Shown here in pieces: positions 399 to 63,634 of a stretch of DNA of 64,000 nt. Each line of letters starts with the position of its first letter. The stretch's first letter is position 1. The notes beneath the pieces were generated by a model that saw nothing but the letters and a program-made list of their open reading frames with translations, ran no database searches and was not told the origin of the DNA. The stretch is from Chloroflexota bacterium (GTDB taxonomy: Bacteria > Chloroflexota > UBA11872 > VXOZ01). A program made the position numbers and the translations under genes. The DNA lies in NCBI GenBank assembly GCA_963663275.1, contig OY760183.1, positions 3,328,001-3,392,000 of the forward strand, in the 5' to 3' direction.

Positions 399-571
399 GA
401 ACCTGTTTACGATCGTCTTGTCTGCACGAGGAACGTTCGCCCTGAGCCGCGTCGAAGGGTGAACGGAACCACTGCAAGGTGGCAAATAGCCGTTCATGCT
501 TCGACAGGCTCAGCACGAACGGTCTCTATCGGCCTTGCAAATTCCCCCCTAAGCAGATTGAAAACAGGCTC
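399..571. mobile_element. IS5-family-like MITE carrying family G REP palindromes
   Basis: TIR GAACCTGTTTAC...GAAAACAGGCTC, flanks TAG/TAA; inverted homolog at 39720-39919. Confidence 0.7.
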
Positions 572-613
572 TAAATGCGCGGCACGCGGCCCGAACCCGG
601 AACCGGTGAGAAA

Positions 614-1474
614 CTAACCGTCTTCAGAACCCGGCTTGCTCCGCGCCGGCGCGCCGGGAACGCACACATATTCCGGCACTGCCTCTCCATCCACGAGGTG
701 CTCGGCCACGATGCGGTCCACGGCGGCTGCGTCCACGCCGCCGTACCACGTGCCGTCCGGATGCACCACCATGATTGGCCCCAGATCGCACGGATACAGA
801 CAGCCGGTGCGCACGGTCATCACGCCCCGCCGGCCACGCAGTTTATTCTCTCTGAGCTTCTCCTCGAAGTAAGCCCACGTCTTCGGGGCGTTCGCCAGCG
901 TGCAGCGGGGCCCGTGGCAGAGAAACACCTGATGGCGATGGGCGGGAATGAGGTTCCAGGAACGTTCTCGGTCCGTTATGTTCGGATCGCCGCGGACTTC
1001 CACGCAGCCGTGCGCATCCGCCACCGCGGCGCTCACGGCGTCAGCCAGGTGTTCGCTATCGCCGAGCGGCGGCGCCAGCACAACGTCCATCGCGTCATCC
1101 GGGACGTTCTCCCGCACCCAATCACGGATTGCGAGTGGCAGCCACCAGCGCACCGTGCCATCCATCGGTACGAGCGCGGGCACTATCAGCAGGTGGCGCG
1201 CGCCTGCGGCCATGCACTCTTCCAGCACCGCGGGCAAGGCCGGCTTGCCCTGCTCCATGAAGGCGTAGCGCACTTCCCGATAGCGCCCGGAACCCGCAAC
1301 AGACGAAACAACCCGCTCCAGTTCTTCACGCGGCGCGCCGCCATACCCGCCGCGGCCCACGATCACAACCGTATCAAACGGCGCGCCGTTAGGTTCCAAC
1401 GTCATGCTGTCGGTTTCTACCGCGGCCCTTGGGGACGAAACGCTCGTCCCTTGCTCACTCCGGGCGTCTGGCAT
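614..1474 (-). CDS. CbiX/SirB-like domain fused to thioredoxin-like [2Fe-2S] ferredoxin
   Basis: N-terminal VVIVGRGG...YAFMEQGKPAL...LAPPLG; C-terminal CHGPRC...GCLYPCDLGP..PDGTWY. Confidence 0.75.
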   Translation of the reverse strand: MPDARSEQGTSVSSPRAAVETDSMTLEPNGAPFDTVVIVGRGGYGGAPREELERVVSSVAGSGRYREVRYAFMEQGKPALPAVLEECMAAGARHLLIVPALVPMDGTVRWWLPLAIRDWVRENVPDDAMDVVLAPPLGDSEHLADAVSAAVADAHGCVEVRGDPNITDRERSWNLIPAHRHQVFLCHGPRCTLANAPKTWAYFEEKLRENKLRGRRGVMTVRTGCLYPCDLGPIMVVHPDGTWYGGVDAAAVDRIVAEHLVDGEAVPEYVCVPGAPARSKPGSEDG

Positions 1475-1506
1475 GGCGAAATTCTTTCACTGCGCGCGAC
1501 TGGGTT

Positions 1507-2340
1507 CTAGCGTTCACCAACCAGCACCGCTGCGGCCGGCGCTTCGGCGGGCGCCGTCGCCGGCGGCGCGGCGGCGTGTGCGGGCAGAAATACAATGTGG
1601 AGTTTGCCGGTGCGGGGATGGACTTGCACCTCGGCCTCTACGCCGAAGACCTTGCGCAACAGCGCCGGCTGAAATACGTCCTCCGGCGTTCCCGCCGCCA
1701 CAATCTCTCCTTCCGCCATGATGTAGAGGCGGTCGCAGTACGTCGCGGCCAGGTTGAGATCGTGAAGCGCGGTAAAGGTAGTTACCCGCAATCCGCGCAC
1801 GAGATCGAGGATTTCGAGTTGGTAGCGCACGTCCAGGTGATTGGTCGGTTCATCCAGGATGAGAAAGCGCGCTTGTTGCGCCAAAGCGCGGGCAATCAGG
1901 ACGCGCTGCTTCTCGCCGCCGGATAGCGTCGCGAACGAGCGGTCCGCGAATGAGAGCATACCGACTTGCGACAGCGCGTTCTCCACCAGGTCGTGGTCCT
2001 CTGCGTTTTCGCGCGCGAACATGCCCTTGTGGGGTGTGCGGCCCATCAGCACCATTTCCCACACCACGAACTCAAACTCGCCGGGCGTTTCCTGCAAGAC
2101 TGTTGCCGTCCGCCGCGCGGCTTCTTTGGCATCGAGGTCCCACACGCTGTCGCCTTCGAGGGCAATGTAACCCGCATCGGGCTTGAGCGCGCGGTAAATG
2201 CAGCGCAGCAGACTCGACTTGCCGCTGCCGTTGGGTCCGAGCACCCCCACAAGCTCGCCTGCCGCCACGTCCACGGCAACATCACGCAGAATCGTCTGTT
2301 CTTCCACACTCCAGGTTACTTTTTCAACGTGCAGCGTCAT
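1507..2340 (-). CDS. Iron-chelate/cobalamin ABC transporter ATP-binding protein
   Basis: GPNGSGKS, LSGGEKQR, LDEPTNHLD, LHDLNLAA. Confidence 0.93.
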   Translation of the reverse strand: MTLHVEKVTWSVEEQTILRDVAVDVAAGELVGVLGPNGSGKSSLLRCIYRALKPDAGYIALEGDSVWDLDAKEAARRTATVLQETPGEFEFVVWEMVLMGRTPHKGMFARENAEDHDLVENALSQVGMLSFADRSFATLSGGEKQRVLIARALAQQARFLILDEPTNHLDVRYQLEILDLVRGLRVTTFTALHDLNLAATYCDRLYIMAEGEIVAAGTPEDVFQPALLRKVFGVEAEVQVHPRTGKLHIVFLPAHAAAPPATAPAEAPAAAVLVGER

Positions 2341-3452
2341 GAGCGACCCCCTCCCAGCGCATCTCGATTCCGGCGCATCAACCAGATGAAGAACGGACCG
2401 CCGATAAAGCCCGTAATCACACCCAGGGGCATCTCCTCAGGCTGCACGATTGTGCGCGCGAGCACGTCCACCCAGACCAAGAAGATAGCCCCCGCCAAGA
2501 GGCTGACCGGCAGCACCCGGCGGTGGTCGGAACCGACGAACAGGCGGACGGTGTGCGGCATCATGAGGCCCACAAAGCCGACGGCGCCGGCGAGCGCAAC
2601 CATCACGCCGGTGATCATGGCCGCTACCACCATCAGCACACGGCGAAAGCGGGTGGTATCCACGCCGAGACTGATGGCCGTTTCCTCTCCGGCAACCAGC
2701 GCGTTGAGCGGCCGCGCCTGTAAAATCAAGTACGCAGTTCCGATCACCAGCGCAATCAGCGGCAAGGTGAGGTAGCTCCACTTGGCGCCTGCCACACTCC
2801 CCTGGAGCCAGAAGAGCACCGACCTGATGCCCTCCGCGTCGTCGGCCCGGAAAATGACGAAGCTCGTCCCGGCCGACAACACATAGGAGAGCGCTACGCC
2901 GACCAGGATCAGCCGCACCGGCGAGAGCGTGCCGCGGTTTTGCGCCAGCGTGATCACGATTACAAATGCCATCACCGAGCCCAAGAATGCCGCCACCGAG
3001 AGCGAGTAGATTCCAAAGAACTTGAAGACGCCCATCAGGATGACAAGCACCGCGGCCAGCGACGCCCCTGATGAAATCCCCAGGATATAGGGGTCTGCCA
3101 GGGGATTGCGCACGGCTGCCTGCATGGCGACGCCAACCACCGCCAGCCCCGCGCCGATGATGGCCGCCAGGAAGACCCGGGGCAAGCGGATCAGCCACAC
3201 GATGTTCTCATGGGCGGCGGACCACTCGCCCGAAGCAAGACCGGTCAGGCGCGCCAAGGCAATCTGCCACACCGTAAAGGGTGAAATCGCCACCGGCCCA
3301 ATGGTCACGGCCAGTGTCAGCGTCACCAACAATGCCGCCGTTAGGGCGAGCAAAGCCAAAGGAAAGCGCGCGTCCCGGCGCTTGGATCGAGGAGCCGGCG
3401 CCGGGGGCGTTTCGCTTGGGTCCTGGCTCGCTTGTTCTACTGCTGGCCCCAT
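2337..3452 (-). CDS. FecCD-family ABC permease
   Basis: RLPR, RNPLADPYILGISSGA, GFVGL..PH motifs; 4-nt overlap with the ATPase. Confidence 0.93.
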   Translation of the reverse strand: MGPAVEQASQDPSETPPAPAPRSKRRDARFPLALLALTAALLVTLTLAVTIGPVAISPFTVWQIALARLTGLASGEWSAAHENIVWLIRLPRVFLAAIIGAGLAVVGVAMQAAVRNPLADPYILGISSGASLAAVLVILMGVFKFFGIYSLSVAAFLGSVMAFVIVITLAQNRGTLSPVRLILVGVALSYVLSAGTSFVIFRADDAEGIRSVLFWLQGSVAGAKWSYLTLPLIALVIGTAYLILQARPLNALVAGEETAISLGVDTTRFRRVLMVVAAMITGVMVALAGAVGFVGLMMPHTVRLFVGSDHRRVLPVSLLAGAIFLVWVDVLARTIVQPEEMPLGVITGFIGGPFFIWLMRRNRDALGGGRS

Positions 3453-3476
3453 GTAAATCGCTTCTCAGCTTCTCGG

Positions 3477-4484
3477 TTACTCAGGATAGAAGCCCTGGAA
3501 CAGGGTCTCGATCACGTCGACGCTGCGGGGACCGGGCTGCGTGGCCGTGAACTCCACGATGACAAAGCGCTCTTCTTGGACGGCCCGAAGCGCCGCGAGC
3601 GCCTCGGTGTCTTTCAAGTACTCGATCTTCTCCTCCGCTGTGGACCAGGTTGCGTGGTGCAGCACGATGACGTCCGGGTCGCGCTCGATGACGGATTCCC
3701 AGTTCACCGTGGCAAAGCCGCCTTCCACATCCGCGAAGATATTGATTCCGCCGGCCTCTTCCAGCAGCGCGTTCACGATGCCGGTGCCGGCGGCCGTGTA
3801 CGGCGCTTCATCGCCGCTGTCGTAGACGAACACCTTGACCTCTGCGTCCGCGGCCTGCGTCTTGGAGTGGATTTCCGCCAACCGCTCCCGCTTTTCGGCC
3901 ACGTATGCTTCCGCGCGCTCCGATACGCCGAAGATCTTCCCGATATTCAGGAAGTCGGTGAACACGTCCTCGATGGTCGCCTTGCTCTCCAGGCAATTCG
4001 CATGAGCGAGGTAAGAATTGATGTTCAATTCCAGCAAGGCTTCGCGCGGTCCGGCCACCTCATCGCGGAAGGCGCTCACCCAACCGGCGTAGATGAAGTC
4101 GGGCTCCGCAGCCAGGAACACCTCCCGGGACGGATAGGTGTCCGAGAGCACGGGGACCTGTGCGTACGCGTCGGCGAGATTGGGCAAGATCGGGTCTTCC
4201 AAGTACGCCGTGCCCACCATTTGGTCCTGCAGCCCCAGGGTCAACATCACCTCGGTGGCGTGCTGGGCCATCGCTACGGCGCGCTGCGGCGGTTCCGTGT
4301 ACGTGATGGTCACGCCGCAGTTCTCGATGGTCACCGGCTCGTAAGCTGCCTCGCTCACCTGCTCCGGCTCGGTCTCCGCTTCCTGCACTGTGACGGTACC
4401 GCAAGCGGCAACGAGAACGCTGGCAGCGCCCATAGCGCCCAACGCCAAAATGCTGCGGCGGGTTGTCCGTCGATGCTCTTTCAT
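3477..4484 (-). CDS. Iron-chelate/cobalamin ABC substrate-binding lipoprotein (Tat)
   Basis: TRRSIL twin-arginine signal, VAACG lipobox, VTIENCG..PQRAV; start moved to ATG 4484 after GGGAGG. Confidence 0.9.
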   Translation of the reverse strand: MKEHRRTTRRSILALGAMGAASVLVAACGTVTVQEAETEPEQVSEAAYEPVTIENCGVTITYTEPPQRAVAMAQHATEVMLTLGLQDQMVGTAYLEDPILPNLADAYAQVPVLSDTYPSREVFLAAEPDFIYAGWVSAFRDEVAGPREALLELNINSYLAHANCLESKATIEDVFTDFLNIGKIFGVSERAEAYVAEKRERLAEIHSKTQAADAEVKVFVYDSGDEAPYTAAGTGIVNALLEEAGGINIFADVEGGFATVNWESVIERDPDVIVLHHATWSTAEEKIEYLKDTEALAALRAVQEERFVIVEFTATQPGPRSVDVIETLFQGFYPE

Positions 4485-4540
4485 CCTGGGGGCCTCCCGA
4501 TAGTACTGATAACTATAACCAAAGTCGTTAGCATTAGCTA

Positions 4541-4584
4541 ATGACAACGCTTTTCATTAAAGATAAGTCGGTCGCCTTTGTCAA
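4541..4584 (-). promoter_or_regulatory. Promoter with overlapping Fur-like box
   Basis: TTGACA (4579-4584), 17 nt, TTTAAT; palindrome AATGAAAAGCGTTGTCATT overlaps the -10. Confidence 0.65.
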
Positions 4585-4811
4585 GGGATTCCGGGGGAAA
4601 AGTGGGCGACTTTTCTCTAAGAACAACCGCCTCCGGCGCACCGCGCCTGTCGAGAGGCAGACAAGCGCCGCGACCCTACCGTAGCAAACGCATCACACCG
4701 CGCGGTCTGCCCACCGCACGGCAGCCGGAGTGAGGGCGAACCGCAAGCCGGCGGGGTAAGGGCAAGCCGGAAGCCGTGCCCAGGGGCCAAACCTGCGCCG
4801 GATGTCATTCC

Positions 4812-4884
4812 TGTACGTGTCAGAAGTGGTACACAGAGTTGGCAGGCTCATCAAGATAATTCAGTGCCACTCACCGCACGTACA
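4812..4884. mobile_element. 73-bp miniature TIR element inserted at a family F REP
   Basis: TGTACGTG...CACGTACA termini; ATGTCATTC present on both sides. Confidence 0.55.
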
Positions 4885-4887
4885 CAT

Positions 4888-5000
4888 GTCATTCCGAACG
4901 TAGCGCAGCGGAGTGAGGAATCTCAAGCGTTTGCCTGCTGACAAAGCTCCTGGCAAGGATCCTAGATTCCTCTCTTCGCTGCGCTCCATTCGGAATGACA
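4888..5000. repeat. REP family F doublet (GTCATTCCGA...GGAATCT / AGATTCC...TCGGAATGAC)
   Basis: Inverted pair; related copies near 18499, 49635, 51408, 63349. Confidence 0.85.
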
Positions 5001-5187
5001 GAAAACCCGGTACTGCCCTCCGCTTCGATCATTACGATAGGATAGTCGGCCCCGCCCCCTCCTGGCACGAAGACATCGAAACCGGCAAGAAACTATCGGC
5101 CAGCTTCGTTAATTTATCTCTTGACTGTAGCAGTAAAAGGTGGTAGCTTACCGGTGAACGCCTGACACCGAATTCGAGGCTGGGAGA

Positions 5188-5580
5188 GTGCTGGCAATGC
5201 GGAAGCAATTCTCCGGCAGCGTGCCCGCTATGTTGCTGCTAATGGGCATTCCCGCCGTAATTCTGCTTGTTGCGCTGGCGGCAGAGGCCGGCTGGATTGC
5301 CACACTCCTGGGAAGTGAACGCGCGCCGCTCGGGACATTCGTCAACGCCTGGGCCGTTGGCGCCGCCACCGCGTTCCTCATCGGCTTCGGCGCCACACTT
5401 CTCATAGCGCGCATTGCGTTAGCCGCCAATTGGGGCTCGTTTTCCATTAGAGTCGGGCCCATCAGGCTCTTTGACTTCACCGGCAGGACCGGCGCCACCG
5501 CTTTCGCCTTTACGTTTCGGGGCGAACTCCTTCTGCTTGCGCTGCTCGCCGGACTGCTCTACGCCCTTGGCGCTTCCTAA
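5188..5580 (+). CDS. Hypothetical membrane protein
   Basis: Three hydrophobic segments; upstream TTGACT-17-TAGCTT at 5121. Confidence 0.6.
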   Translation: MLAMRKQFSGSVPAMLLLMGIPAVILLVALAAEAGWIATLLGSERAPLGTFVNAWAVGAATAFLIGFGATLLIARIALAANWGSFSIRVGPIRLFDFTGRTGATAFAFTFRGELLLLALLAGLLYALGAS

Positions 5581-5671
5581 CGCGCGGAGCGGGGCGGCAC
5601 GTCTTAAGGCGCTTGAGCGGGCGTACCGCGCGGCTACCGGATGCGCACATTAACCCTATGCGCCTTGCGCA

Positions 5672-8461: not shown

Positions 8462-8580
8462 AGGACCTAGACCTTCGTTTCCAACGTGCGATCAACCTAC
8501 GCGTACGCCGCCATGTCGCTCGGCAGATTCATCGCCAGCGCCTTCAACGCTCAAGCAAACTACGCGAAGCCGCACGTCCT

Positions 8581-8722
8581 CGGTTGCGCAAGTTTGTAGC
8601 CTCCATCCCCGGTAGCGTAGGTTTGTAACCTGCGTCCTCGGTAGTGCAGGTTTGTAACCTGCGTCCCCGGTAGCGTAGGTTTGTATCCTACGTCCTTGGT
8701 AGCGTAGGTTTGAAACCTGCGT
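8581..8722 (+). repeat. Tandem array of five ~29-bp family A REPs
   Basis: GGTAGCGCAGGTTTGTAACCTGCGTC variants; single copies near 8955, 11563, 23799, 23965, 29560, 32516, 63184. Confidence 0.88.
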
Positions 8723-8902
8723 CACGTGCGGTTCAATCTGTGGCCGCCCTCTTCTCACGCTCAATCCCCGCAAGCCACGCTCCAGGCCGCTTGCTCCGGC
8801 GGGGGACAAGCCCCCGCGCTACGGTAATGCCGCCTCGTGCCCCGGGCAGCGGGATATAGCCCTTATGGTCAACGGGTCCATGTAGCGCGGGGGCTTGTCC
8901 CC

Positions 8903-9064
8903 CAATGCTGTCGCATTAAACACAATGAGAGTGAAAACAACGCTCGTTTCTCCGGTAGCGCAGGTTTGTAACCTGCGTCTTCCGTAGGGTCAATCCATTT
9001 CGTTAGCATTTCTCTTATTCCGGCGGGGGACAAGCCCCCGCGCTACGTTAATGCGACAGTATTG
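8903..9064. mobile_element. 162-bp IS4-like MITE inserted in a family B REP
   Basis: TIR CAATGCTGTCGCATTAA/TTAATGCGACAGTATTG; 12-bp TSD GGGCTTGTCCCC. Confidence 0.85.
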
Positions 9065-9254
9065 GGGCTTGTCCCCCGCCTCTTCTCGTCTCCCGCTTCT
9101 TGGTGAAAATGGCAAACACCATCCCAGGCGGAACGCTCAACGCCATCTTTCCCGCTCGCCCATACGCAAGAATCCAGCTTATGCGCCCGCGCTGGTATAC
9201 TGTATGCGCGCTAATCGACGCATACACTCACGCACCTGGGATTGGAGAACGACC

Positions 9255-14354: not shown

Positions 14355-14482
14355 AGTGATGGCTGTCCGCCTTACAACTCTTAGCCCTGCACTCACCAAG
14401 GAGATCTCTGCGAAGCACGGCAAAAACAGTTGGAGCCGGGATTGACCGGCGCCGGTTTCCCCCTCACCCCGGCCCTCTCCCC

Positions 14483-14770
14483 TGTACAGCCCGGGGACAT
14501 GGGTAACACATTTTCGGACACACAAGTCACGCCATCGACCTAGAGAGTTATCGTGGTATGCATTTCCCATGCCTTGACAGGTATGTCTACTCAATATCTT
14601 GTGTAGACATATTCTGCCCCTGGCACCAGCTAACAAGCTGGACATGACCGCGTTGTGTTGCCTGGAACGGTCAGCATCCCGGCCCAAGCCGGAGCACCAG
14701 TAGGTGTCAATACGCTAAATGTGTAACCCATCTTCCCAGAAAACTGTTACCCATGTCCCCGGACTCTACA
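14483..14770. mobile_element. 288-bp IS481-like MITE or deletion derivative inside a family E repeat
   Basis: TGTA...TACA ends, IR CCGGGGACATGGGTAACA, reiterated subterminal site at right end, flanks CTCCCC/CTCCCA. Confidence 0.8.
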
Positions 14771-14937
14771 CTCCCAGGGAGAGGGGGTCTTCTCGCCTGC
14801 CGGTCCGGGGTATGGAGCGGTCTTCTAACGAAACGTAGGGGCGGTTCGCGAACCGCCCCTACCGTGTTGCAGAGCTATTGTCGGCGATACCACACGCGAA
14901 CCGCCCCTACCGTGTTGCAGATCTATTGCCGGCGTTA

Positions 14938-17049: not shown

Positions 17050-17050
17050 G

Positions 17051-18461: not shown

Positions 18462-18621
18462 GCTGACAGGGGTAGGCATTCTACATCCGACTTCACGTGT
18501 CATTCCGAGCGGAGCGCAGCGGAGAGTCGCTAAGAGCGCGGAATCTAAGGCTTTCGCTGCAAAAACGTCGGTTCTAGATTCCTCGCTCCGCTCGGAATGA
18601 CACTTGCCTACCCCTGTCAGC
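18462..18621. mobile_element. 160-bp MITE inserted in a family E repeat and carrying family F REPs
   Basis: TIR GCTGACAGGGGTAGGCA/TGCCTACCCCTGTCAGC; 9-bp TSD CTCTCCTGG. Confidence 0.85.
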
Positions 18622-18859
18622 CTCTCCTGGGGGAGAGGGTTAGGGTGAGGGGGACTGTGCGGCGAATCGTGCCCAAGGCTTGCCCAATTGGCCGGATCCA
18701 ACGAGGATTCCCCCTCACCCCGGCCCTCTCCCCAGGGAGAGGGTGTCTATTTGCACGTCTTCTCCACAGGGAGCGGGAGTCTTCTCGCCTACCGGCCGGG
18801 GTTGTGCCTACGTCCCCTGTGTGCGTAAGTTCCCTCGTGTGCACACATTTTCCTTAACT

Positions 18860-21211: not shown

Positions 21212-21239
21212 GTAGGGGCACGACATGTCGTGCCCCTAC
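21212..21239. repeat. Family C REP GTAGGGGCACGACATGTCGTGCCCCTAC
   Basis: Perfect 28-bp palindrome, identical at 40103-40130 and 63245-63272. Confidence 0.92.
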
Positions 21240-23746: not shown

Positions 23747-24112
23747 CAATGCTGTCGCATTGAGCTCCATGGCGAACATTCCGCGTCACACACCCCCGGT
23801 AGCGCAGGTTGGCAACCTGCGCAAGCGTAAGATCACTCTGTGGGCGCCGTTTTCCCATGCGAAACCGCCGGTGATCGCTCTCTGTGCTTCACGCTCCGGC
23901 GGGGGACAAGCCCCAATGCTGTCGCATTAAACGCAATGAGAATGAAAACTGCGCTCGTTTCTCCGGTAGCGCAGGTTTGTAACCTGCGTCTTCCGTAGGG
24001 TCAATCCATTTCGTTTTCACTTTTCTTGTTCCGGCGGGGGACAAGCCCCCGCGCTACGTTAACGCGACAGCATTAGGGACAAGCCCCCGCGCTACGTTCG
24101 TGCGACAGGCAA
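23747..24112 (+). mobile_element. Nested IS4-like MITEs (162-bp inner copy at 23914-24075)
   Basis: Two CAATGCTGTCGCATT left ends; inner TSD GGGACAAGCCC (11 bp). Confidence 0.8.
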
Positions 24113-29138: not shown

Positions 29139-29336
29139 TGAAAGACGGCACTCCTAGAGAATTGCGCAGCGCAATGCGGGGGACTTAACACGATTAAGGA
29201 TACCTGGAACACGGCGAGAATGAAAGCGAAAACATGCCTTGAAGGGTGACTCATTTGAGACCCTCAGACCGCTGATTCCGCTTGCCGTCACGGTCTCACA
29301 CGGGTTGAGAAAAAACCAAGAATCAGGGCGCGGCGT

Positions 29337-29502
29337 TCCCTCTCCATCGAGGGAGAGGGCTAGGGTGAGGGTGATCCATTCCCTCTCCATTGAGGGAGAG
29401 GGCTAGGGTGAGGGTGATCCGTCCCCTCTCCATCGAGGGAGAGGGTTAGGGTGAGGGTGATCCATCCCCTCTCCATCGAGGGAGAGGGTTAGGGTGAGGG
29501 TG
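29337..29502. repeat. Four tandem ~40-bp family E repeats
   Basis: CCCTCTCCATCGAGGGAGAGGG(C/T)TAGGGTGAGGGTGA x4, no unique spacers. Confidence 0.9.
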
Positions 29503-30318: not shown

Positions 30319-31779
30319 ATCGAAGAGACTAAGGCACTGCCTAATCCGAGAGAAGAATTACCTCTGAAGCTGCCTGAATCAGGCGTTTCGCCGACAGACC
30401 CTTGGAATGACGATGTGCTTGGGCGGCGGGATCTTGCGACAAGGCTGACAAAGCTGATCCAAAGTCAGACGGCTCCCTTTGTCATCAGCATTGATGGAAA
30501 CTGGGGCACAGGCAAGACCTTTCTCTTGCAGCGCTGGCAGTCAGAGTTGGAGAAAGAGGGCTTCAAGGCCATTTACTTTAACGCCTGGGAAGACGACTTT
30601 TGCGACGACCCCCTTCTCGCCATTCTTGGCCAACTGTCTGAATACTTCGAGGAAGGCGAACTCAAGAGGTTTGCCGGTCAAGTCGCTAATGTCGCAGGCC
30701 CTTTACTCAAACAGAATCTCCTGAGCGTCTTGCACAAGCACACTGGATTAGTGCTAGAAATCGAGAGCAAAGAGCAGCCTCAGAGAAATCTGCTACAAGA
30801 GTATCTTGACCAGAGAGCGACGAAGGACGAACTAAAGAATCACTTGCAGAAGCTGTCTAACGCAGTGGTGAATGAGACAGGCCACCCTCTGGTTTTCATC
30901 ATCGACGAACTCGATAGATGCCGTCCCACATTCGCCATCGAGCTTCTGGAAAGAGTAAAGCACATCTTTGATGTTCCCAATTTGGTGTTCGTATTTGGGG
31001 TCAACCGTGATGAGCTTTGTTCGGCACTACAGTCGATTTACGGTGACATTGACGCGGAAGTATATCTCCGAAGGTTTTTCGATTTGGAGTTCATGCTCCC
31101 GGAGACAAATCCGGCGGACTTCTGCAGAAATCTGCTCGATCGCTTTCAATTTGCTGAGTTCTTCTCTGAGTTAGGCAAGAATGCCGGTACCAATCTGCAC
31201 GACAACGAATTCAGAAACCTTTCTGAATGGATTCCGATCTTTTGGAGCGGATTCGGCATGTCTCTGCGCGACATGGACTATTGCGTGCGGACAATCGCTT
31301 TGGTTTGCCGGAGCCTCGAGCCAAGGCATTACATGTATTCTTACCTGCTAAGCGTCCTTATTCCTCTAAGGCTCACAAACCAGAGTCTGTATCGGCAATT
31401 CATCCAAGGCGATTGCCACGCCAGCGCAGTGATGGATTATTTGGACCGTACTGTCCAAATCACGAACTCTTCTGTTGGCTACGCTATGGACGTGGAACTC
31501 ATCATGGAAATCATAGAGGTTGAGTTGTATCGCGCTGAAAGCCAAAGAGACGAAGATCCCCAACACCGGGATGCCTTATTACAAATCAGGTTACTGTCTA
31601 GAGGCGAGGACATGACTCAGCCTAGTCTCGTTTCTGAAAAGACCCGAAGATCAGACAAGAATCGGATTGACAGTCTCCTTAGGCTGTATAGTCCTCAAGG
31701 AATGCAAGGCTATAGTGGGGACGCGGTTGACCACGTTGCAAGGATGATTGACCTCCATCAAACCGTGCTAAGAAAGTAG
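30319..31779 (+). CDS. KAP-family P-loop NTPase
   Basis: GNWGTGKT Walker A, FNAWEDD, IIDELDRCRP, YLRRFFD; low GC; start at ATC 30319 or GTG 30415. Confidence 0.9.
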   Translation: MEETKALPNPREELPLKLPESGVSPTDPWNDDVLGRRDLATRLTKLIQSQTAPFVISIDGNWGTGKTFLLQRWQSELEKEGFKAIYFNAWEDDFCDDPLLAILGQLSEYFEEGELKRFAGQVANVAGPLLKQNLLSVLHKHTGLVLEIESKEQPQRNLLQEYLDQRATKDELKNHLQKLSNAVVNETGHPLVFIIDELDRCRPTFAIELLERVKHIFDVPNLVFVFGVNRDELCSALQSIYGDIDAEVYLRRFFDLEFMLPETNPADFCRNLLDRFQFAEFFSELGKNAGTNLHDNEFRNLSEWIPIFWSGFGMSLRDMDYCVRTIALVCRSLEPRHYMYSYLLSVLIPLRLTNQSLYRQFIQGDCHASAVMDYLDRTVQITNSSVGYAMDVELIMEIIEVELYRAESQRDEDPQHRDALLQIRLLSRGEDMTQPSLVSEKTRRSDKNRIDSLLRLYSPQGMQGYSGDAVDHVARMIDLHQTVLRK

Positions 31780-32419: not shown

Positions 32420-32615
32420 CGGTGATCGCTTTTCGCGCTTCACGTTCCGGCGGGGGACAAGCCCCAATGTTGTCGCATTAAACGCAATGAGAGTGAAAGC
32501 GGCGCTCGTTTCTCCGGTAGCGCAGGTTTGTAGCCTGCGTCTTCCGTAGGCTCAATCGATTCCGTTCTCATTTTTCCTGTAAAGGCGGGGGACAAGCCCC
32601 CGCGCTACGTTAACG
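32420..32615 (+). mobile_element. Truncated nested IS4-like MITE
   Basis: Same GGGACAAGCCC|CAATG junction (32465) as at 23914; right TIR lost. Confidence 0.75.
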
Positions 32616-32737
32616 AGCCAATATTTCCCCCTCACCCTAGCCCTCTCCCAGTGGGAGAGGGGACAAGAGCGGTGCTTGGCTTTTCACCGGCAACTGGTTG
32701 ACGGATAACTGTGTCCTAGCGAGGAGATGCTGCACCC

Positions 32738-35970: not shown

Positions 35971-35983
35971 CAAAGGACTATTC

Positions 35984-36182
35984 ATGCTCGACGCATTCGA
36001 CCTCACCGGCAGCACGGTCATCGTCACCGGGCGCCAGCCGGGGCATTGGCCGCACCACGGCGGAAGTGCTCGCCGCTGCCGGCGCGCCAACGTGGTGGCC
36101 GTCGCCCGCACCGAGAGCGCGCTTGCCGCGCTGGCGCAGGACATCTCCGGCGCCGGCGGCACGGCGGTGGCCGTGCGCGCCG
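35984..36182 (+). pseudogene. Duplicated 5' fragment of the SDR gene
   Basis: Near-identical to the start of 36262-37017 with +1 and +2 insertions. Confidence 0.8.
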
Positions 36183-36261
36183 TTAATGGTTGCGTTCGTA
36201 ATGCCAGAAACGCCAGCGTAGATGAGCGCAGTCCAAGACATAGCAAGAGAGGTATCCTTAC

Positions 36262-37017
36262 ATGCTCGACGCATTCGACCTCACCGGCAGCACGGTCATC
36301 GTCACCGGGGCGAGCCGGGGCATTGGCCGCACCACGGCGGAAGTGCTCGCCGCGGCCGGGGCCAACGTGGTGGCGGTCGCCCGCACCGAGAGCGCGCTTG
36401 CCGCGCTGGCGCAGGACATCTCCGGCGCCGGCGGCACGGCGGTGGCCGTGCGCGCCGACGTGAACGTGCCGGAGGATACGGAGATGCTGGTGGAGCGGAC
36501 GCTGGCGGCGTTTGGCGCGGTGGACGCGCTGGTGAACAACGCCGGCGAGTCCGGCAGGAACGGCCCCATGGGCGAGACCTCCGCCGCCGATTGGGACGAC
36601 CTGCTGGGCAACAACCTGCGCAGCGCCTTCCTGTGCAGCAAGGCCGTCTTTCCCATTATGGAGCGGCAGCGGCGCGGCAGCATCGTCAACATGGCGAGCA
36701 TCAGCGGCCAGAACGGCGGCCAGAGCGCCCGCGTGCACTACGCCGCCTCGAAAGGCGGCATGATCGCCTTCACCAAGGCCCTCGCCCGCCAGATGGCGCC
36801 CTGGGGACGCGCCAACAACATCGCCCCCGGCCAGATCGACACCGGCTTTGCCCGCATTCCCGAAGAGCGTCTGCGCATCGTGCTCGACCGCACCCCGCTG
36901 GAACGCCTAGGCAAACCGGAGGAAATCGCCTACGGCGTGCTCTACCTCGCCAGCGACGCCTCGGCGTTCATCACCGGCCACACGCTGGCGATCAACGGCG
37001 GGATGATCATGGACTAG
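36262..37017 (+). CDS. SDR family oxidoreductase
   Basis: TGASRGIG, NNAG, YAASK, NNIAPG. Confidence 0.94.
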   Translation: MLDAFDLTGSTVIVTGASRGIGRTTAEVLAAAGANVVAVARTESALAALAQDISGAGGTAVAVRADVNVPEDTEMLVERTLAAFGAVDALVNNAGESGRNGPMGETSAADWDDLLGNNLRSAFLCSKAVFPIMERQRRGSIVNMASISGQNGGQSARVHYAASKGGMIAFTKALARQMAPWGRANNIAPGQIDTGFARIPEERLRIVLDRTPLERLGKPEEIAYGVLYLASDASAFITGHTLAINGGMIMD

Positions 37018-39719: not shown

Positions 39720-39919
39720 GAACCTGTTTACTATCTGCTTAGAGATAGAACCTGTTTACTATCTGCTTTGAGGGAGTTTGCAAAGCCGGTGTAAACCGTT
39801 CGTGCTGAGCCCGTCGAAGCATGAACGGTTGCTTGCCAGCGTGCAACGACTCCAATCACCCTTCGACAAGCTCAGGGCGAACGTTCCTCGATGCAGACAA
39901 GACGATCGTAAACAGGTTC
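39720..39919. mobile_element. IS5-family-like MITE with duplicated left end
   Basis: GAACCTGTTTAC at 39720 and 39748, GTAAACAGGTTC at right; TTA TSD. Confidence 0.75.
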
Positions 39920-39953: not shown

Positions 39954-40026
39954 GCCCCCGTAGCTCAGTGGACAGAGCAACTGCCTTCTAAGCAGTTGGT
40001 CGGGTGTTCGAATCACCCCGGGGGCG
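39954..40026 (+). tRNA. tRNA-Arg(TCT)
   Basis: Acceptor GCCCCCG/CGGGGGC, anticodon loop CTTCTAA, GTTCGAATC. Confidence 0.95.
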
Positions 40027-40460
40027 CCTCTGTTCCCCAACAGTCCTCAGTCGCCGGCCCTGCCCGGAAAGACGTGCGCTAGCCACGATTCCCCCCACCC
40101 CGGTAGGGGCACGACATGTCGTGCCCCTACCGGGGGCGTGGCGCGCGTCCTGCGAGTTAAGGCACCTCAAGACCCTGCCGGGAGACCTTTGTGCAACCAT
40201 AGTCTGCGCACAATGAAACTCCCTCTCCCTGGGGGAGAGGGCCGGGGTGAGGGGTGAATCTCCGTCGGTTCGGCTCCATTGCGCAAAACTTGGGAGTGAG
40301 GCGCCGCACAATTTCCCCCTCACCCTAACCCTCTCCCCCAGGAGAGGGAACAGGAGGCGCCCGCTCCGCCAGTGCGCCTGCTCACCACGCGCCTCCACTT
40401 GCGCCGCCAAATGCGCGTATAATGAGGAAAACCCGTAAACACAGGAGCGGATTACACACC

Positions 40461-49615: not shown

Positions 49616-49790
49616 GTTGACAGGGGTATGTAAGTGTCATTCCGAGCGGAGCGTCGAACAGGGTTCGCGGAATCTAGAATCGACCGTTTTGCAGCGAAAG
49701 CCTTAGATTCCGCGCTCTTAGCGACTCTCCGCTGCGCTCCGTTCGGAATGACACGTGAATTCGGACATTAGGAAACATACCCCTATCAGC
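49616..49790. mobile_element. Diverged copy of the GCTGACAGGGG MITE in a family E repeat
   Basis: GTTGACAGGGGTATG...CATACCCCTATCAGC with internal family F pair. Confidence 0.7.
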
Positions 49791-51116: not shown

Positions 51117-51214
51117 AGCCAGTAGCCAAAAGCCAGTAGCCGGTAGCTAGTAGTCAGTAGCCGCTACCTAGAAATCAGTAGCCGGTAGCCGCTGACCAGT
51201 AGCCGGTAGCCGTT
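51117..51214 (+). repeat. Heptamer tandem repeat, about 14 units
   Basis: AGCCAGT/AGCCGGT/AGTCAGT/AGCCGCT units. Confidence 0.8.
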
Positions 51215-51371
51215 CGCCCTGAGCCTGTCGAAGGGTGAACGGCTGCCGGCTTTTCAAGTCCAAGCTGAACGGATTTTGGCGCCGCTAACGAAATGCCAAT
51301 GCTCCCCGTTCATAGCGGCCCGAGTTCGCGGCGACCGTTGCCTGGCCAAAGTCAACGCCCCCCTCTTGCCC

Positions 51372-51566
51372 GCTGGCAGGGGTAGGCATCTACATCCGGT
51401 TACGCCTGTCATTCCGAGCGGAGCGCAGCGGAGAGTCGCTAAGAGCGCGGAATCTAAGGCTTCCCCTGCAAGAATATCTCTTCTAGATTCCTCGCTGCGC
51501 TCGGAATGACATTCCCATCCTCTTATCCCCTCTCCCTGGGGGGAGAGGGTTAGGGTGAGGGGGGCA
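51372..51566. mobile_element. Partial GCTGACAGGGG-type MITE plus family E repeat
   Basis: Left TIR-like GCTGGCAGGGGTAGGCA and family F pair; right TIR absent. Confidence 0.65.
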
Positions 51567-51568: not shown

Positions 51569-53677
<2,109 letters not shown>

Positions 53678-56682: not shown

Positions 56683-56705
56683 TAGCTCACGCTAATCGCC
56701 TGCCG

Positions 56706-59280: not shown

Positions 59281-59476
59281 GAACGCTATTCGCCCTACGA
59301 CCAACACGCAACGCTACGCGCCATCGGCAGGACGCGCGCCACAACCCGGAACTGCGCGGCAGGACTGGCTCCGCACCACTGCCATAGCCGCTGCCCGGAG
59401 CGGAAGGCCGGTGTAGCGGTTGCTGAAAGTGAGAAGGGAGAGTCGGAGACTGATACCCGCATTGGCGAGAGAGTGG

Positions 59477-59908
59477 TTAGGGAAAGAAAAGCGGCACGAT
59501 GCGATCGAAGACGCCAATCGCGGCAAGCATGACGATCACCGCTACGATGAACCCGATTACCCAACGCGACAGCGCATTGTGCTTGTCTACCATGTCGGCG
59601 CGCAAGATTGCCATGTCGGTTTGCGACTTTTGAGCCAGCAACTCTATGGCGTGTTGCATGCGCGTCAACCCGATTTCCAAGTCGGCTTTCGTGGCCTGCT
59701 GCACACGCTCCAGACCGGCCTCTAAATCTGCTTTCATGGCCCGCTGCACACGCTCTAATCCGGCTTCCAGATCGGAGCGCATGGCACGTTCCACGCTATC
59801 CAAGTCGGCTTTGGTTGTGCGCTCCAAACGCTCTAGGCCGGCTGCTAGGTCGGCTTTTGTCGCGTACTCGTTTGCGTCGGGCGGTTGCTCCGCCGCTTCA
59901 ATTGCCAT
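59477..59908 (-). CDS. DUF1640/CCDC90-like coiled-coil protein with C-terminal TM anchor
   Basis: YATKADL neck, repeated KADLEAGLERV units, hydrophobic C-terminus. Confidence 0.75.
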   Translation of the reverse strand: MAIEAAEQPPDANEYATKADLAAGLERLERTTKADLDSVERAMRSDLEAGLERVQRAMKADLEAGLERVQQATKADLEIGLTRMQHAIELLAQKSQTDMAILRADMVDKHNALSRWVIGFIVAVIVMLAAIGVFDRIVPLFFP

Positions 59909-60129
59909 CCGCGCCCTCCCTAGTGCGTGTAACGCTTGGCCCTTTCAAGCCTTCACTTTAGATGTTCTCAGGAAGTCGCTGAATTGTCAAAAGCGGTGTA
60001 ATTCTCAAGAATGTGCTCTTCAAACCAAAGGCAACCGTGCAGAGACGTTTCCACCGCGCCGTTCTTCTGTACAATAGAGGGCACGACGACAGTGGAAGAC
60101 CCGATAAGCAACGCAGGGAGGATTGGGGA

Positions 60130-61899
60130 ATGACGTTGCGCAGCCAGGAACTACGCGGCCTCAACCGCCAGGGCGACGCCCTGCGCATGGGCATGGACTG
60201 GACAGTAGAAGACCTGGGCAAGCCGCAGGTGCTGGTGGAGAGCGTGACCGGCTGCTCCCATCCTTCCAGCGTGCATCTCGGCGAGCTGGTGGAGCAGGCC
60301 AAGTTCGGCGTCTACACCCGCGGCGGCAAGCCCGCCGAATTCTACTGCACCGACATCTGCGACGGCGTGGCCCAGGCCCACGCGGGGATGCGCTTTAGTC
60401 TCCCCTCGCGGGACATCATCAGCTATATGACGGAAATCCACGCCCTGGCCCATCCGCACGACGCCATGGTCTGCATCTCTACCGCCGACAAGGCCGTGCC
60501 CGGCCACCTGATGGCCATGGCGCGCGTGAACCTGCCGGCCATCCATATCCCCGGCGGCACGCAGACCAACGGCCCGTGCAACATGTCCTCGGAGCTTATG
60601 TATCCGCTCGGCATCATGCGCGACAAAGGGCAGATCACTGAAGAAGAGCTAATCGCCAAGCAGAAGCACGCCTGTCCCACGCCGGGTTCCTGCCAGTTCA
60701 TGGGCACCGCCAGCAGCAACCAGGTGATCGCCGAGGCGCTGGGCCTGGCGCTGCCGGGGAGCGCGCTCATTCCCGCGCCGCTGCGCCAACTCACCCGCAT
60801 GGCCCGCGACGCCGGCGAACAGGTGATGACCTTGCTTGAACAAAACATCCGGCCCCGCGACATCCTGACGCCGGAGGCCTTCCACAACGCCCTCGTCCTC
60901 CATGCCGCGGTCGGCGGCTCCACAAATCTCCTGATTCACTTGCCCGCCATCGCCGCGGAAGTGGGCATCGAAATCCGCCCGCAGCAGTTCGACGAAATCG
61001 GCAGAAAAGTGCCGGTGCTGACCGACGTGAAGACCTACGGCACGCATCCGGTGGAGTACGTCTGGTACTGCGGCGGCGTGCCCGCCTTGATGAACGAGGT
61101 CAAGGACTTCCTCCACCTCGACTGCCTCACCGTCACCGGCAAGACCGTCGGCGAGAACCTGCAAGATCTCGAAGATTCCGGCTGGTTCGACGAAATCGGC
61201 GGCTATCTGGACAACCACGGCCTGCGCAAAGAAGAAGTGCTCTATCCCATCGAGCGGCCCTACAAGTCGGGCGGCACGATTGCCGTGCTCACCGGCAACC
61301 TGGCGCCGGAAGGGGCGGTGATGAAGCACGTGGCCGCCGACCCGCGCACCCATCAGATGGTCGGCCGCGCGGTGCCCTACGACTGCGAGGACGACGCCAT
61401 CGCGGGCGTCACGAATGACGAGATCAAACCCGGCGACGTGATGGTCATTCGCTACGAGGGACTGCGCTCCTCGGGCATGCCGGAGATGTACTTCTGCACT
61501 ACCGTCATTTCGGCGCGGCCCGACCTGGAGGCCAGCACCGCCATCATCACCGACGGACGCTACTCCGGCGCGGCCAAAGGCCCCGCCATCGGCCACGTGA
61601 TGCCGGAAGCGGCCTTGGGCGGCCCGCTCGCCTTGGTGGAGAAGGACGATCTCATCGAGATCGACGTGCCCGCGCGCTCGCTGGCAATCGTGGGCGTGAA
61701 CGGCGAACGCCGGCCGGCCGCGGAGATTGATGAAATCCTGGCCGAGCGCCGCGAACGCTGGCAGCCGCCAACGCGCAAGCACGAGGCCGGCGTGCTCTCC
61801 CTCTACGCCCGCGAGGCTGCCGGCGCTGACGCTGAGTCCGCAAACGGCCTCCCGGCGAATGCGGCGCTCCGCAACGTTGAACCGCTGCCGCGCCCGTGA
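60130..61899 (+). CDS. ilvD: Dihydroxy-acid dehydratase family (IlvD/Edd)
   Basis: DICDG, DKAVPG, CQFMGTA, GGSTN, TDGRYSG; substrate uncertain. Confidence 0.88.
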
Positions 61900-63164
61900 G
61901 CGCGAATGCCCCCTATCCGCTCGCTGCCGTGCGCGCCGTCATCCTCCACGCCCAGGGGCTAGACGAGCCGCAGCGCAGAGGCGCCCGGCCGGGCATCGAG
62001 GACGTCTACGCGGCGGTGCGGCGCGTAGGCTGGGTGCAGATCGACACGCTCCAGGTCGTCAATAGAGCGCAGTACCTCACGCTCTGGAGCAGGCTGGGCG
62101 CGTACGATACCACGCTGCTCGACAGGCTCCTCTTCGACGACGGCGCCACCTCGCCCGACAACGGCCGCCGGTTGTTCGAGTATTGGGCGCACGCGGCCTG
62201 CATCATCCCGCTCACCGCCTACCCCTGCTTCCTGCCCGACATGCGCCGGCGCCGCGAGGGTCACGGCACGTGGCACACGCGCTGGGCCGCCAAGCCCGAA
62301 AACCAACGCATGATGCGGACGCTTCTAAAGAGAATCCGCGCGGGGGGCGCCGCCCGTCCCGCCGACTTTCGCACCGGCAAGCGCGCCCCGGGGTCGTGGT
62401 GGAACTGGGACGACGCGAAAGTGGCGCTGGAATACCTCTATGACGTCGGCGACCTTGCCATCGCCAACCGCGTCAATTTCCAGCGCATCTACGACGCCAG
62501 CGAGCGCGTGCTGCCGGCCTGGGTTGACAGGGAAGAGCCGCCCGCGGACGCGGCGCTGCGGCAACTTCTGGAGACTTCCCTGCGGGCATTGGGAGTCTGC
62601 GCGCCGGGGCAGGTCGGCAACTACCTCCACCTGAAGTCCACCGCGGCGAAACCCCACGTGGAGGCGCTGATCGCGGACGGCACGTTCGTCACCATCCACG
62701 CCCGGTTGGCGGACCGCAAGACCCGTGAACTGCTGGTTCACCGCGACAACGCCCCCCTCTTAGAGGCGGCCGCGGACGGCGCGCTCCGCGCCCGCCGCAC
62801 GACGTTTCTCAACCCCTTCGACAGCCTCTTCTGGGCCAAGGGGCGCGACCGCGCCGTGTGGCAATTCCACCAAACCCTGGAATGCTACAAGCGCGCGCCG
62901 GACCGCATCTGGGGCTACTTCTGCCTGCCCATCCTGGACCGGGACCGCCTGGTGGGCCGCTTCGATCCGAAGCTGGAACGCAAAACCGGCCTGCTCCGGC
63001 TGAAGGCGCTCTACCTGGAACCGGGAGTAAGGCCCAGCCAACGGCTGGCATCCTCCACGGCCCGCGCCATGCGCGACTTCATACGCTTCCACGACGCGAC
63101 GGACCTGGCAATCGAACACAGCGACCCGCCGGAGTTCGGCCAAAAGCTCTCGGCGGCACTGTAA
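61896..63164 (+). CDS. YcaQ/AlkZ-like crosslink-repair DNA glycosylase
   Basis: VQID, LWSRLG, FEYWAH, PFDSL, WGYFCLPIL, VGRFDPK. Confidence 0.88.
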   Translation: MSANAPYPLAAVRAVILHAQGLDEPQRRGARPGIEDVYAAVRRVGWVQIDTLQVVNRAQYLTLWSRLGAYDTTLLDRLLFDDGATSPDNGRRLFEYWAHAACIIPLTAYPCFLPDMRRRREGHGTWHTRWAAKPENQRMMRTLLKRIRAGGAARPADFRTGKRAPGSWWNWDDAKVALEYLYDVGDLAIANRVNFQRIYDASERVLPAWVDREEPPADAALRQLLETSLRALGVCAPGQVGNYLHLKSTAAKPHVEALIADGTFVTIHARLADRKTRELLVHRDNAPLLEAAADGALRARRTTFLNPFDSLFWAKGRDRAVWQFHQTLECYKRAPDRIWGYFCLPILDRDRLVGRFDPKLERKTGLLRLKALYLEPGVRPSQRLASSTARAMRDFIRFHDATDLAIEHSDPPEFGQKLSAAL

Positions 63165-63311
63165 GCCTGTACGCCGCCCCTCCGGTAGCGCAGGTTTGCA
63201 ACCTGCGCACTCCGGCGCAATGACCGCCGGTAGTCCTCGCCGGTGTAGGGGCACGACATGTCGTGCCCCTACACCGCTTACCCCCTCACCCTAAACCTCT
63301 CCCCAGGGAGA

Positions 63312-63459
63312 GCTGACAGGGGTAGGCATTCTACATCCGACTTTACGTGTCATTCCGAGCGGAGCGAGGAATCTAGAACCGACGTTCTTGCAGCGAAAGC
63401 CTTAGATTCCTCTCTCCGCTGCGCTCCGCTCGGAATGACACTTGCCTACCCCTGTCAGC
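63312..63459. mobile_element. 148-bp GCTGACAGGGG MITE in a family E repeat
   Basis: Perfect 17-bp TIR; 10-bp TSD CCCAGGGAGA. Confidence 0.85.
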
Positions 63460-63634
63460 CCCAGGGAGAGGGACCCAGAAAGAGCCAACGCACCCACGCA
63501 ACAACACGTCCGCCTCACAGGGCGGGGGCCTGTCCTTTATGTTGTCGCACTACCGTAGCGCGGGGGCTTGTCCCCCGCCTCTGCGCGGCGCAATTGCCCT
63601 GGAATAGAGGGACGGGCCACACAACGCGCGGCGC

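Follow-up and report, generated by a model that had tools for sequence, protein, structure and literature searches.

Repeated extragenic palindromes (REPs) have been described as targets of insertion sequences (ISs) of the IS3, IS110, IS4 (ISRm22), IS256 and IS5 families (Tobes and Pareja 2006, PMC1525189); the available portion of that text contains neither IS481 nor the word MITE (short for miniature inverted-repeat transposable element), and brings in IS30 only as an analogy. According to the accessible part of a second report, IS30 has two kinds of target, near-palindromic hot spots and positions next to its own inverted repeats (IRs; PMC9333248). REPs with a GTAG tag occur in Chloroflexi, where the available part of Di Nocera et al. 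2013 (PMC3733652) describes GTAG-23 elements of T. roseum inserted in small palindromes. Here we describe a stretch of 64,000 nucleotides (the window; bases 3,328,001-3,392,000 of a single 3.53-Mb contig) from the genome of a Chloroflexota bacterium, in which short palindromes are split by elements with terminal inverted repeats (TIRs). The placement of these elements throughout the genome makes it highly probable that several unrelated DDE transposons, together with the miniature elements derived from them, insert preferentially into short hairpin repeats. Coordinates are window positions unless marked as genome or C1.

Hairpin repeats of the genome

Seven dispersed palindrome families, A to G, had been claimed in the initial annotation of the window, and all seven lie where it had placed them, at numbers far above shuffle expectation. 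Window matches below allow at most one mismatch, except for the E head, for which exact matches were counted; the genome counts are exact, and each of the seven motifs occurs between 79 and 456 times in the 3.53 Mb.

A: 11 window matches (0.30 expected); 135 forward and 114 reverse in the genome; 207 hairpin-defined copies
B: 8 window matches (0.00 expected); 228 forward and 228 reverse; 432 hairpin-defined copies
C: 6 window matches (0.07 expected); 139 forward and 137 reverse; 117 hairpin-defined copies
D: 5 window matches (0.23 expected); 52 forward and 50 reverse; 39 hairpin-defined copies
E head: 10 exact window matches (0.22 expected); 145 forward and 135 reverse; 311 hairpin-defined copies of E and 57 of E'
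F: 9 window matches (0.38 expected); 140 forward and 143 reverse
G: 3 window matches (0.10 expected); 44 forward and 35 reverse

Each hairpin family covers 0.03-0.29% of the genome (B 0.29%, E 0.16%, E' 0.035%). The GTAG tag is present in families A-D and absent from E and F. An E unit combines a head (CCCCTCACCC) with a hairpin. The genome has 358 such heads; 68 inverted doublets, their units about 60 bp apart, and some tandem arrays occur among them. The context of GTAG-REPs and REP-associated tyrosine transposases (RAYTs) in which the repeats had been set does not apply to E and F, since neither is a GTAG/RAYT-type REP, and E' is the end of an IS5-type MITE, in which it forms the subterminal hairpin.

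The CAATG MITE and its IS4-family partner

The window holds the following copies of the CAATG MITE, listed with their target site duplications (TSDs) and cargo:

8903..9064 (+): CAATG MITE copy 1, 162 bp, with TIR CAATGCTGTCGCATTAA at both ends and TSD GGGCTTGTCCC; carries an A REP at 8955-8977 and a B REP at 9023-9046
8882..9080 (+): B-family GTAG REP split by CAATG MITE copy 1
23914..24075 (+): CAATG MITE copy 2, in a B REP of opposite orientation, TSD GGGACAAGCCC; carries an A REP at 23966-23988 and a B REP at 24034-24057
32465..32625 (+): CAATG MITE copy 3, partial, with a decayed right TIR, 87% identical to copy 1; carries an A REP at 32517-32539 and a B REP at 32585-32608, and adjoins an E element at 32628
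23747..23763 (+): solo CAATG TIR

Deletion of copy 1 plus one TSD restores the B REP GTAGCGCGGGGGCTTGTCCCCCGC. Each intact copy of this element, and of the GCTGACAG MITE described below, is flanked by direct target repeats, and excision in silico restores an intact hairpin. Genome-wide TIR pairing and self-comparison of the genome revealed that the CAATG TIR also bounds four 1194-bp elements outside the window, which encode a 367-aa transposase matching the IS4-family model NF033592 at 156.9 bits (cut-off 115) and PF01609 at 81.8 bits. Elements of the IS4 family have a long TSD of about 9-13 bp. With a transposase above the cut-off, 17-bp TIRs and an 11-12-bp TSD in 40/61 TIR pairs, the 1194-bp element is a member of that family. 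The 162-bp element has only the TIRs (about 17 bp) in common with it, the interior being an A REP, a B REP and a spacer; it is short and non-coding, and its IS-type TIRs, TSDs and many copies are those of a MITE.

Among the 61 CAATG TIR pairs of the genome, 35 lie in a strict B hairpin; the full-length IS4 copies are in B hairpins without exception (4/4). Inspection by eye placed 18 of the other 26 in decayed B hairpins. Of the remaining eight, four lie at E heads, a different GTAG palindrome and a GCTGACAG TIR hold one each, and two were unclassified. As most copies lie inside REPs, the CAATG/IS4 element is a REP-targeting IS. Four of the eight copies outside B (genome positions 362660, 864280, 1928525 and 2729029) also bear an 11-bp TSD, which shows that the element bounded by the TIRs moves on its own. 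Where the position could be placed, the 11-bp TSD was centred on the B dyad (offset 0) in 31 of 33 copies. Eight CAATG MITEs, window copy 1 among them, are 100% identical, and 17/53 have a nearest neighbour at 100% identity.

The CAATG MITE itself carries an intact B REP, and in two cases described below (F in the GCTGACAG MITE, with one junction, and TGTACGTG in F, with two copies) a composite has indeed been amplified. One might therefore suppose that the hairpin halves are part of the mobile unit, for instance as a large-loop REP moved by a RAYT or by duplication, after one or a few ancestral insertions. The flanking half-hairpins are, however, direct repeats, as insertion by a DDE enzyme requires. 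The B loop variants CTCGT, CTCAT, GACGG and GACGA are each duplicated on both sides of their own CAATG copy and differ among copies; together with outer flanks that also differ, this argues against one ancestral junction later copied. Relative to GTAG, the element is found both ways round (9 and 9 versus 15 and 6), with no preference for the MITE, and the full-length ISs show the same junctions as the miniature elements (IS4 4/4, IS481 7/8). The same TIR element with the same TSD length is also found in unrelated targets, and in other species the hairpins that hold its relatives differ in sequence. Composite amplification is thus very unlikely to account for the pattern, and insertion into existing hairpins is the reading that we follow below.

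Because the CAATG MITE contains REPs, it also disperses them: 51/207 A hairpins and 73/432 B hairpins, or about a quarter and a sixth, lie within CAATG-MITE-like sequence of at least 80 bp. This part of the REP load travels in MITEs and not by RAYT action.

An IS481-family element in the E hairpin

A second element in the window interrupts an E hairpin:

14483..14770 (+): 288-bp MITE (TGTACAG) with the TIRs of a 1266-bp IS481-family IS
14459..14787 (+): E element split in its head-proximal arm by the IS481-type MITE; head CCCCCTCACCC, hairpin CCCTCTCCCC / GGGAGAGGG

By eye, CTCCC flanks the 288-bp element on either side; the script found no exact TSD, owing to a boundary offset. The TGTACAG TIR bounds seven 1266-bp elements outside the window, each with a 377-aa transposase that scores 290.2 bits against the IS481-family model NF033577 (cut-off 224) and contains rve and LZ_Tnp_IS481 domains. 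This transposase, 25-bp TIRs starting with TGTA and a 5-bp TSD in five of eight copies place the element in the IS481 family. The 288-bp element is assigned to it from its ends, which have TIRs of about 25 bp in common with the IS; it is the only MITE of this family in the genome, and two congeners (G008 and G003) have about 20 and 11 copies, respectively. Seven of the eight TIR pairs of this type lie in a strict E hairpin, and the eighth lies between E halves without a TSD. The register differs from that of the IS4 element in being displaced by -3 or -3.5 bp, towards the E head-proximal arm, in 5/5 cases. Nearest-neighbour identity is 100% for 6/7 IS481 copies. In one public sequencing run (X3), the 288-bp MITE occurs on a contig with two differences and a left flank that has no match, which hints weakly at a further insertion site of this MITE.

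The GCTGACAG MITE and its F module

Elements with GCTGACAG ends enclose the F palindrome, and lie in or next to E hairpins at three places in the window; the TGTACGTG element and a stand-alone F module are listed with them:

18462..18621 (+): GCTGACAG MITE, 160 bp, in an E hairpin; TSD CTCTCCTGG; its internal F module has TIRs at 18499 and 18589
63312..63459 (+): GCTGACAG MITE, 148 bp, with internal F module, in an E hairpin (head 63282); TSD CCCAGGGAGA
49616..49790 (+): decayed GCTGACAG-type MITE with F module
51372..51520, right end approximate (+): decayed GCTGACAG-type MITE with F module, adjoining an E hairpin at 51528-51549
4812..4885 (+): TGTACGTG element, 74 bp, between two ATGTCATTCC copies that adjoin an F module on its left
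4886..5008 (+): stand-alone F palindromic module, TIR GTCATTCCGA..

The genome contains 92 GCTGACAG TIR pairs, 71 of them with an 8-11-bp TSD; the TSD reads as 9 bp, or as 11 bp if the TIR is taken to begin at CTGACAG. Targets are E in 37 cases, E' in 20 and E/E' in two (59/92), B in one, and unclassified in 32, most of which are decayed hairpins by eye. In E, the TSD is shifted by +1 to +3.5 bp towards the head-distal arm in 17/18 copies; in E' it lies near the dyad in 11/12. Identity to the nearest neighbour is 100% for 9/61 GCTGACAG MITEs. The element has every feature of a MITE except a known autonomous partner. As candidates for that partner, the DDE_Tnp_1 and rve matches of the genome were considered and set aside, all being explained by IS4, IS5, IS481 and IS30 elements (four IS4 and one IS5 gene for DDE_Tnp_1; seven IS481 and nine IS30 genes for rve). 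The genome has no IS256, ISL3 or IS110 (DEDD_Tnp_IS110) genes; for this partner, families beyond these and DDE_Tnp_1/rve were not searched.

F, a palindromic module about 90-105 bp long, forms 189 TIR pairs in the genome, 116 of them in GCTGACAG elements with both TIRs, 36 in elements with one TIR and 37 stand-alone. Its junction is the same in all GCTGACAG copies, which indicates that F was captured once and then spread as cargo.

IS5-type MITEs and a nested IS30 core

A further layer of nesting, which involves two more element types, lies outside the window. A MITE of which about 50 copies are 142 bp long has a 17-bp TIR identical to that of a single 1241-bp IS5-family element (NF033581, 297.6 bits). 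This element (C1:1,441,993-1,443,233) lies in an E loop with TSD TGAA and has its TIR in common with about 90 MITE copies; it is presumed to be the driver of the 142-bp family. The IS5-type TIR forms 97 pairs, 52 with a 3-bp TSD and 44 in an E hairpin, and the TSD is centred on the E dyad (offset 0) in 20 of the 23 copies that could be placed relative to the E head. About 20 IS5-type MITEs of roughly 300 bp also hold a GCTGACAG element in their E' hairpin.

That 52/97 IS5-type MITEs lie outside E shows that at least one family inserts elsewhere and persists, and the hairpins are intergenic filler in which insertions do least harm. Roughly random insertion, followed by survival of only those copies that fell into harmless repeat DNA, might therefore mimic targeting. 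Selection of this kind would not produce a base-exact register (31/33 IS4 copies on the dyad, 20/23 IS5-type copies, 5/5 IS481 copies at -3 or -3.5), nor can it account for the preference of each element family for a different hairpin when all hairpins are equally intergenic; moreover, very young copies, 100% identical, are already biased to hairpins. We regard selection without targeting as improbable, and target choice by the elements as the better account of these registers.

An IS30-family element is nested in turn within the IS5-type MITE. A repeat of 1155-1179 bp (nine copies) was considered as an IS30 element with GGAGACCTTTGCATAAC TIRs and rejected, as those ends, which belong to the MITE shell, are missing from relatives in other species whose transposases are up to 89% identical. 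The IS30 core proper is 1065 bp long and encodes a transposase that belongs to the IS30 family (NF033563, 237.5 bits; cut-off 80). The nine cores are 99.6-100% identical, whereas the adjoining 75-bp shell has a median identity of 73%, and 9/9 cores lie at one position in an IR-like palindrome of the MITE. Where the core sits, the 142-bp MITE holds a 31-bp palindrome that looks like abutted IS30 ends. The genome thus contains an IS30 core in an IS5-type MITE in an E loop, and GCTGACAG with F in the E' of the same MITE type. As a separate observation, F has a terminal hairpin (GTCATTCC..GGAATC) similar to the IS30 core at its left end (GTCATTCCGGCGAAAGCCGGAAGG), and F may be an IS30-related MITE.

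Since E' is truly part of a transposon, as the subterminal hairpin of the IS5-type MITE, and the 31-bp palindrome resembles fused IS30 ends, the hairpins could in principle all be by-products of transposons, either excision footprints or solo ends, instead of independent repeats. This is scarcely credible for B and E. B REPs are GTAG-tagged and flank a RAYT in the classic arrangement; E has a specific head, 68 doublets, arrays and a class-wide presence; hairpins free of inserts (432 B and 311 E) far outnumber the transposon copies; and the stems reach beyond the TSDs. We accordingly treat both as independent repeats that serve as targets.

Target choice and orthologous loci in relatives

Relatives of the IS4 transposase (37-80% identity) were compared at 12 loci, of which seven are in GTAG/ATAG hairpins, three in E-like elements and two unclear. 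Their hosts are metagenome-assembled genomes (MAGs) of other Chloroflexota and of Rubrobacteraceae, in which the sequences of the target hairpins differ. Relatives of the IS481 element occur in 36/98 genomes of the class. Ends were readable at 20/30 loci, the other ten being too short or without detectable TIRs, and among the 20, 17 are in E hairpins, one is in a palindrome nested in E and two are elsewhere. The same loci show that E occurs throughout the class.

In 16 congeners we compared the locus that holds the 288-bp MITE here. These are different species with diverged intergenic DNA, so that only presence or absence at the level of the locus can be compared. Between the flanking genes, one congener (G006) holds only the D REP; in another (G011), a GCTGACAG-type MITE occupies an E hairpin, and a third (G009) has the end of an IS5-type MITE. 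The D palindrome at 14835-14862 is kept at the locus in all 5 congener sequences inspected, out of 16 matching.

E hairpins, a RAYT and other Y1 genes

The genome encodes three Y1 genes, associated with B, C and D-like REPs. One is a canonical RAYT (genome 383,020-383,409; NF047646, 95.9 bits, cut-off 80), flanked by B REPs, forward upstream and reverse downstream, one of which is split by an IS4 copy; B therefore belongs to a RAYT/REP system. The two further Y1/RAYT-like genes, of 209 and 236 aa, give split matches of 40.8 and 33.8 bits, below the cut-off of 80. In one of them (C1:681,959-682,408), a single C palindrome lies in frame between the HUH and Tyr regions, with C palindromes flanking the gene on both sides; the other (C1:192,639-193,226) has four tandem D-like REPs in frame between the same regions. 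Split Y1 matches of a similar kind occur in congeners. Among the three genes, none was found for the A family and none is flanked by E, so that E does not qualify as a REP doublet forming a hairpin (REPIN). E units of the window occur in these arrangements:

29335..29500 (+): tandem array of four 43-bp E units
18615..18749 (no strand): E doublet of inverted units about 60 bp apart, with the GCTGACAG MITE inserted in the left one
40217..40354 (no strand): E doublet, intact

The orientation of E heads tracks the replichores defined by GC skew, with 87 forward versus 46 reverse where skew is positive and 27 forward versus 58 reverse in the last four negative-skew bins. This bias suggests a strand-specific process or selection by gene direction.

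Hairpins as probable landing pads and as cargo

The initial annotation had proposed that REPs act as landing pads for DDE-type MITEs, which would in turn disperse REPs independently of RAYT. The first part agrees with insertion sites concentrated in hairpins that cover 0.03-0.3% of the genome, with a register fixed for each element; the second agrees with the A and B REPs carried by CAATG-MITE-like sequence and with the 116/189 F modules in GCTGACAG elements. The TIR elements it had listed in the window (CAATG, GCTGACAG, IS481-like and TGTACGTG) were all recovered in place. Of the siting that it assigned to each, CAATG in B and both GCTGACAG and IS481 in E hold genome-wide; TGTACGTG in F is the weak case, with one junction in two copies. 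Two of its three families with cargo could be recognised, CAATG with A and B REPs and GCTGACAG with the F module, and a third was not identifiable in the window. Its view that the window encodes no mobilising enzyme agrees with these results: there is no IS-family repeat of at least 400 bp, and none of the six open reading frames (ORFs) scanned against Pfam, a subset of those present, is a transposase. The partners that it suggested looking for exist elsewhere in the genome, as full-length ISs with the CAATG (IS4) and TGTACAG (IS481) TIRs and as Y1 genes associated with REP families, the canonical RAYT with B and the two Y1-like genes with C and D-like REPs. Outer flanks differ among copies, as opposed to one junction common to all, with TGTACGTG-in-F and F-in-GCTGACAG as the exceptions.

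Several points weigh against the proposal that hairpins are preferred targets. By chance, fewer than 0.3 insertions per element family would be expected in the target hairpins, an enrichment that is somewhat overstated because the patterns used to class targets are looser than those used for coverage. Considerable numbers of pairs lie outside the strict targets (26/61 CAATG, 32/92 GCTGACAG and 52/97 IS5-type); with about half of its copies in non-E sites, the IS5-type MITE is biased towards E and not specific for it. The uniform junction of F within GCTGACAG reflects a single ancestral event and not repeated targeting, and TGTACGTG, with two genomic copies that are 79% alike and have an identical junction to F, likewise gives no evidence for repeated targeting. 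No GCTGACAG TIR pair longer than 240 bp, as an autonomous partner would form, exists in the genome, and no mobiliser is assigned to E or F. No base-precise orthologous empty site was found in the 16 congeners, in which intergenic DNA has turned over, and among the joints listed for contigs of public runs none skips exactly one MITE plus one TSD; contigs break at repeats, which limits this search for empty alleles. Finally, the whole is deduced from sequence.

With these points taken into account, preferential insertion into hairpins remains the account that we favour, and it would proceed as follows. For the IS4 element and its 162-bp MITE, the two strands of the target would be cut 11 bp apart, with the dyad of the B REP midway between the cuts. 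The IS481 element and the 288-bp MITE would give a TSD of about 5 bp (CTCCC) in the head-proximal arm of E, and the 142-bp IS5-type MITE would duplicate the 3-nt loop of E; the TSD of the GCTGACAG MITE would lie off-centre in E, in the head-distal arm, or at the centre of the E' hairpin. The IS30 core would have entered the 31-bp palindrome inside the IS5-type MITE, a link to IR targeting that is suggested by anatomy. We infer that the transposases themselves select the hairpins, probably through a two-fold symmetric or extruded target, that ISs with matching TIRs would move the MITEs in trans, and that insertion into the repeats would be tolerated as harmless to the host. As the MITEs carry hairpins of their own (the CAATG MITE has A and B, the GCTGACAG MITE has F and the IS5-type MITE has E'), each jump would spread repeats and make new landing pads, which would give rise to the nesting.

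A broader interpretation is conceivable but doubtful. The hairpins could be partitioned safe harbours, occupied by at least four DDE transposases (IS4, IS481, IS5-type and IS30) and an orphan MITE, each in its own register, with the relation kept from the family to the phylum level (IS481 with E, the IS4 clade with GTAG) despite change in hairpin sequence, through recognition of DNA shape and a self-feeding cycle. If this were true, classical DDE enzymes would read the shape of DNA, such as an extruded hairpin, cruciform or symmetric bend, and not its sequence, and MITEs would keep seeding new landing pads.

The target choice of classical DDE transposases is understood for only a few elements. 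Here one cell holds several families with base-precise, differing registers on two small hairpins, along with recently active copies and intact transposase genes. Hairpin-specific transposases are candidate tools for site-directed insertion, and for annotation the elements explain why intergenic regions are dense mosaics in these sponge-associated Chloroflexota.

Other features of the window

Further repeats of the window are listed below.

8575..8725 (+): tandem array of five 29-bp A-type REP units
21212..21239 (no strand): C-family GTAG...CTAC perfect palindrome, with further copies at 40103-40130 and 63245-63272
14835..14862 (no strand): D-family GTAG...CTAC palindrome
434..447 (+): G-family motif, with further copies at 39870-39883 (-) and 51211-51224 (+)

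All 11 A-family REPs of the window (8612-63207) point the same way (+), and in the last twelfth of the genome 14 are forward and none reverse; in genome-wide orientation counts, no clear replichore bias was found for A or B REPs. The G motif belongs to a longer conserved element, with AACCTGTTTACGATCGTCTTGTCTGCA.. shared beside it (380-520, 39840-39900 and 51200-51240), and a tRNA gene at about 39960-40030 has one of the G copies just upstream.

G+C content is about 63-68% throughout the window, except in one 4-kb stretch at 57% between the E array and a CAATG MITE. This stretch contains a gene for a KAP-family P-loop NTPase (30415-31779) and may be of foreign origin. The coding region at 35983-36460 contains a near-perfect direct duplication, about 278 bp long. 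Relatives of the window genes bear titles of Chloroflexota, Thermomicrobiales and Chloroflexia MAGs, and the five public runs that hold the window stretch, all kept as contigs, are labelled sponge metagenome. Elsewhere in the genome, one long repeat of the self-comparison is the EF-Tu gene, present in two copies (C1:862,129-863,331 and 2,872,804-2,874,006).

Comparison with known systems

In literature other than subscription journals, we found nothing on targeting of REP-type hairpins by IS481-family elements or MITEs, and nothing on these Chloroflexota repeats beyond PMC3733652. The closest counterpart of the CAATG IS is ISRm22 of Sinorhizobium meliloti, likewise a DDE element of the IS4 family, all copies of which lie inside REP palindromes as described in the available part of PMC1525189. 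The element described here differs in its Chloroflexota host and in a MITE that outnumbers the IS about tenfold and carries two REPs; the likeness concerns family and target, the proteins not having been compared. The same portion of that paper describes IS1397 and ISKpn1 (IS3) and IS621, ISPpu9 and ISPpu10 (IS110), which likewise enter REPs at a constant position. The elements described here have TIRs and classical TSDs, both of which are lacking in elements of the IS110 type; the latter employ a DEDD recombinase and a bridge or seek guide RNA.

The REPs themselves match the system set out in the accessible part of PMC3733652 in that families A-D are GTAG-tagged and a RAYT is flanked by B REPs. 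There, however, the REP is the insert, while here it is both target and cargo of DDE elements, and E and F have no GTAG. The 68 inverted E doublets, with their spacer of about 60 bp, resemble REPINs as described in the portion of Bertels and Rainey 2011 (PMC3116915) available, and differ from them in that no Y1 gene is flanked by E. In keeping with the IS30 targets recorded in the part of PMC9333248 at hand, nine near-identical cores lie in a 31-bp palindrome resembling an abutted IRL-IRR junction, although here the IR-like palindrome is part of a MITE whose ends are of the IS5 type. That ISs target REPs has been known from publications since 2006, and the present elements thus extend a known principle and do not establish a new one. 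They add to it an IS481 clade specialised on E, MITEs derived from IS4 and IS5 elements, and an IS30 core inside a MITE; how they recognise the hairpins is inferred.

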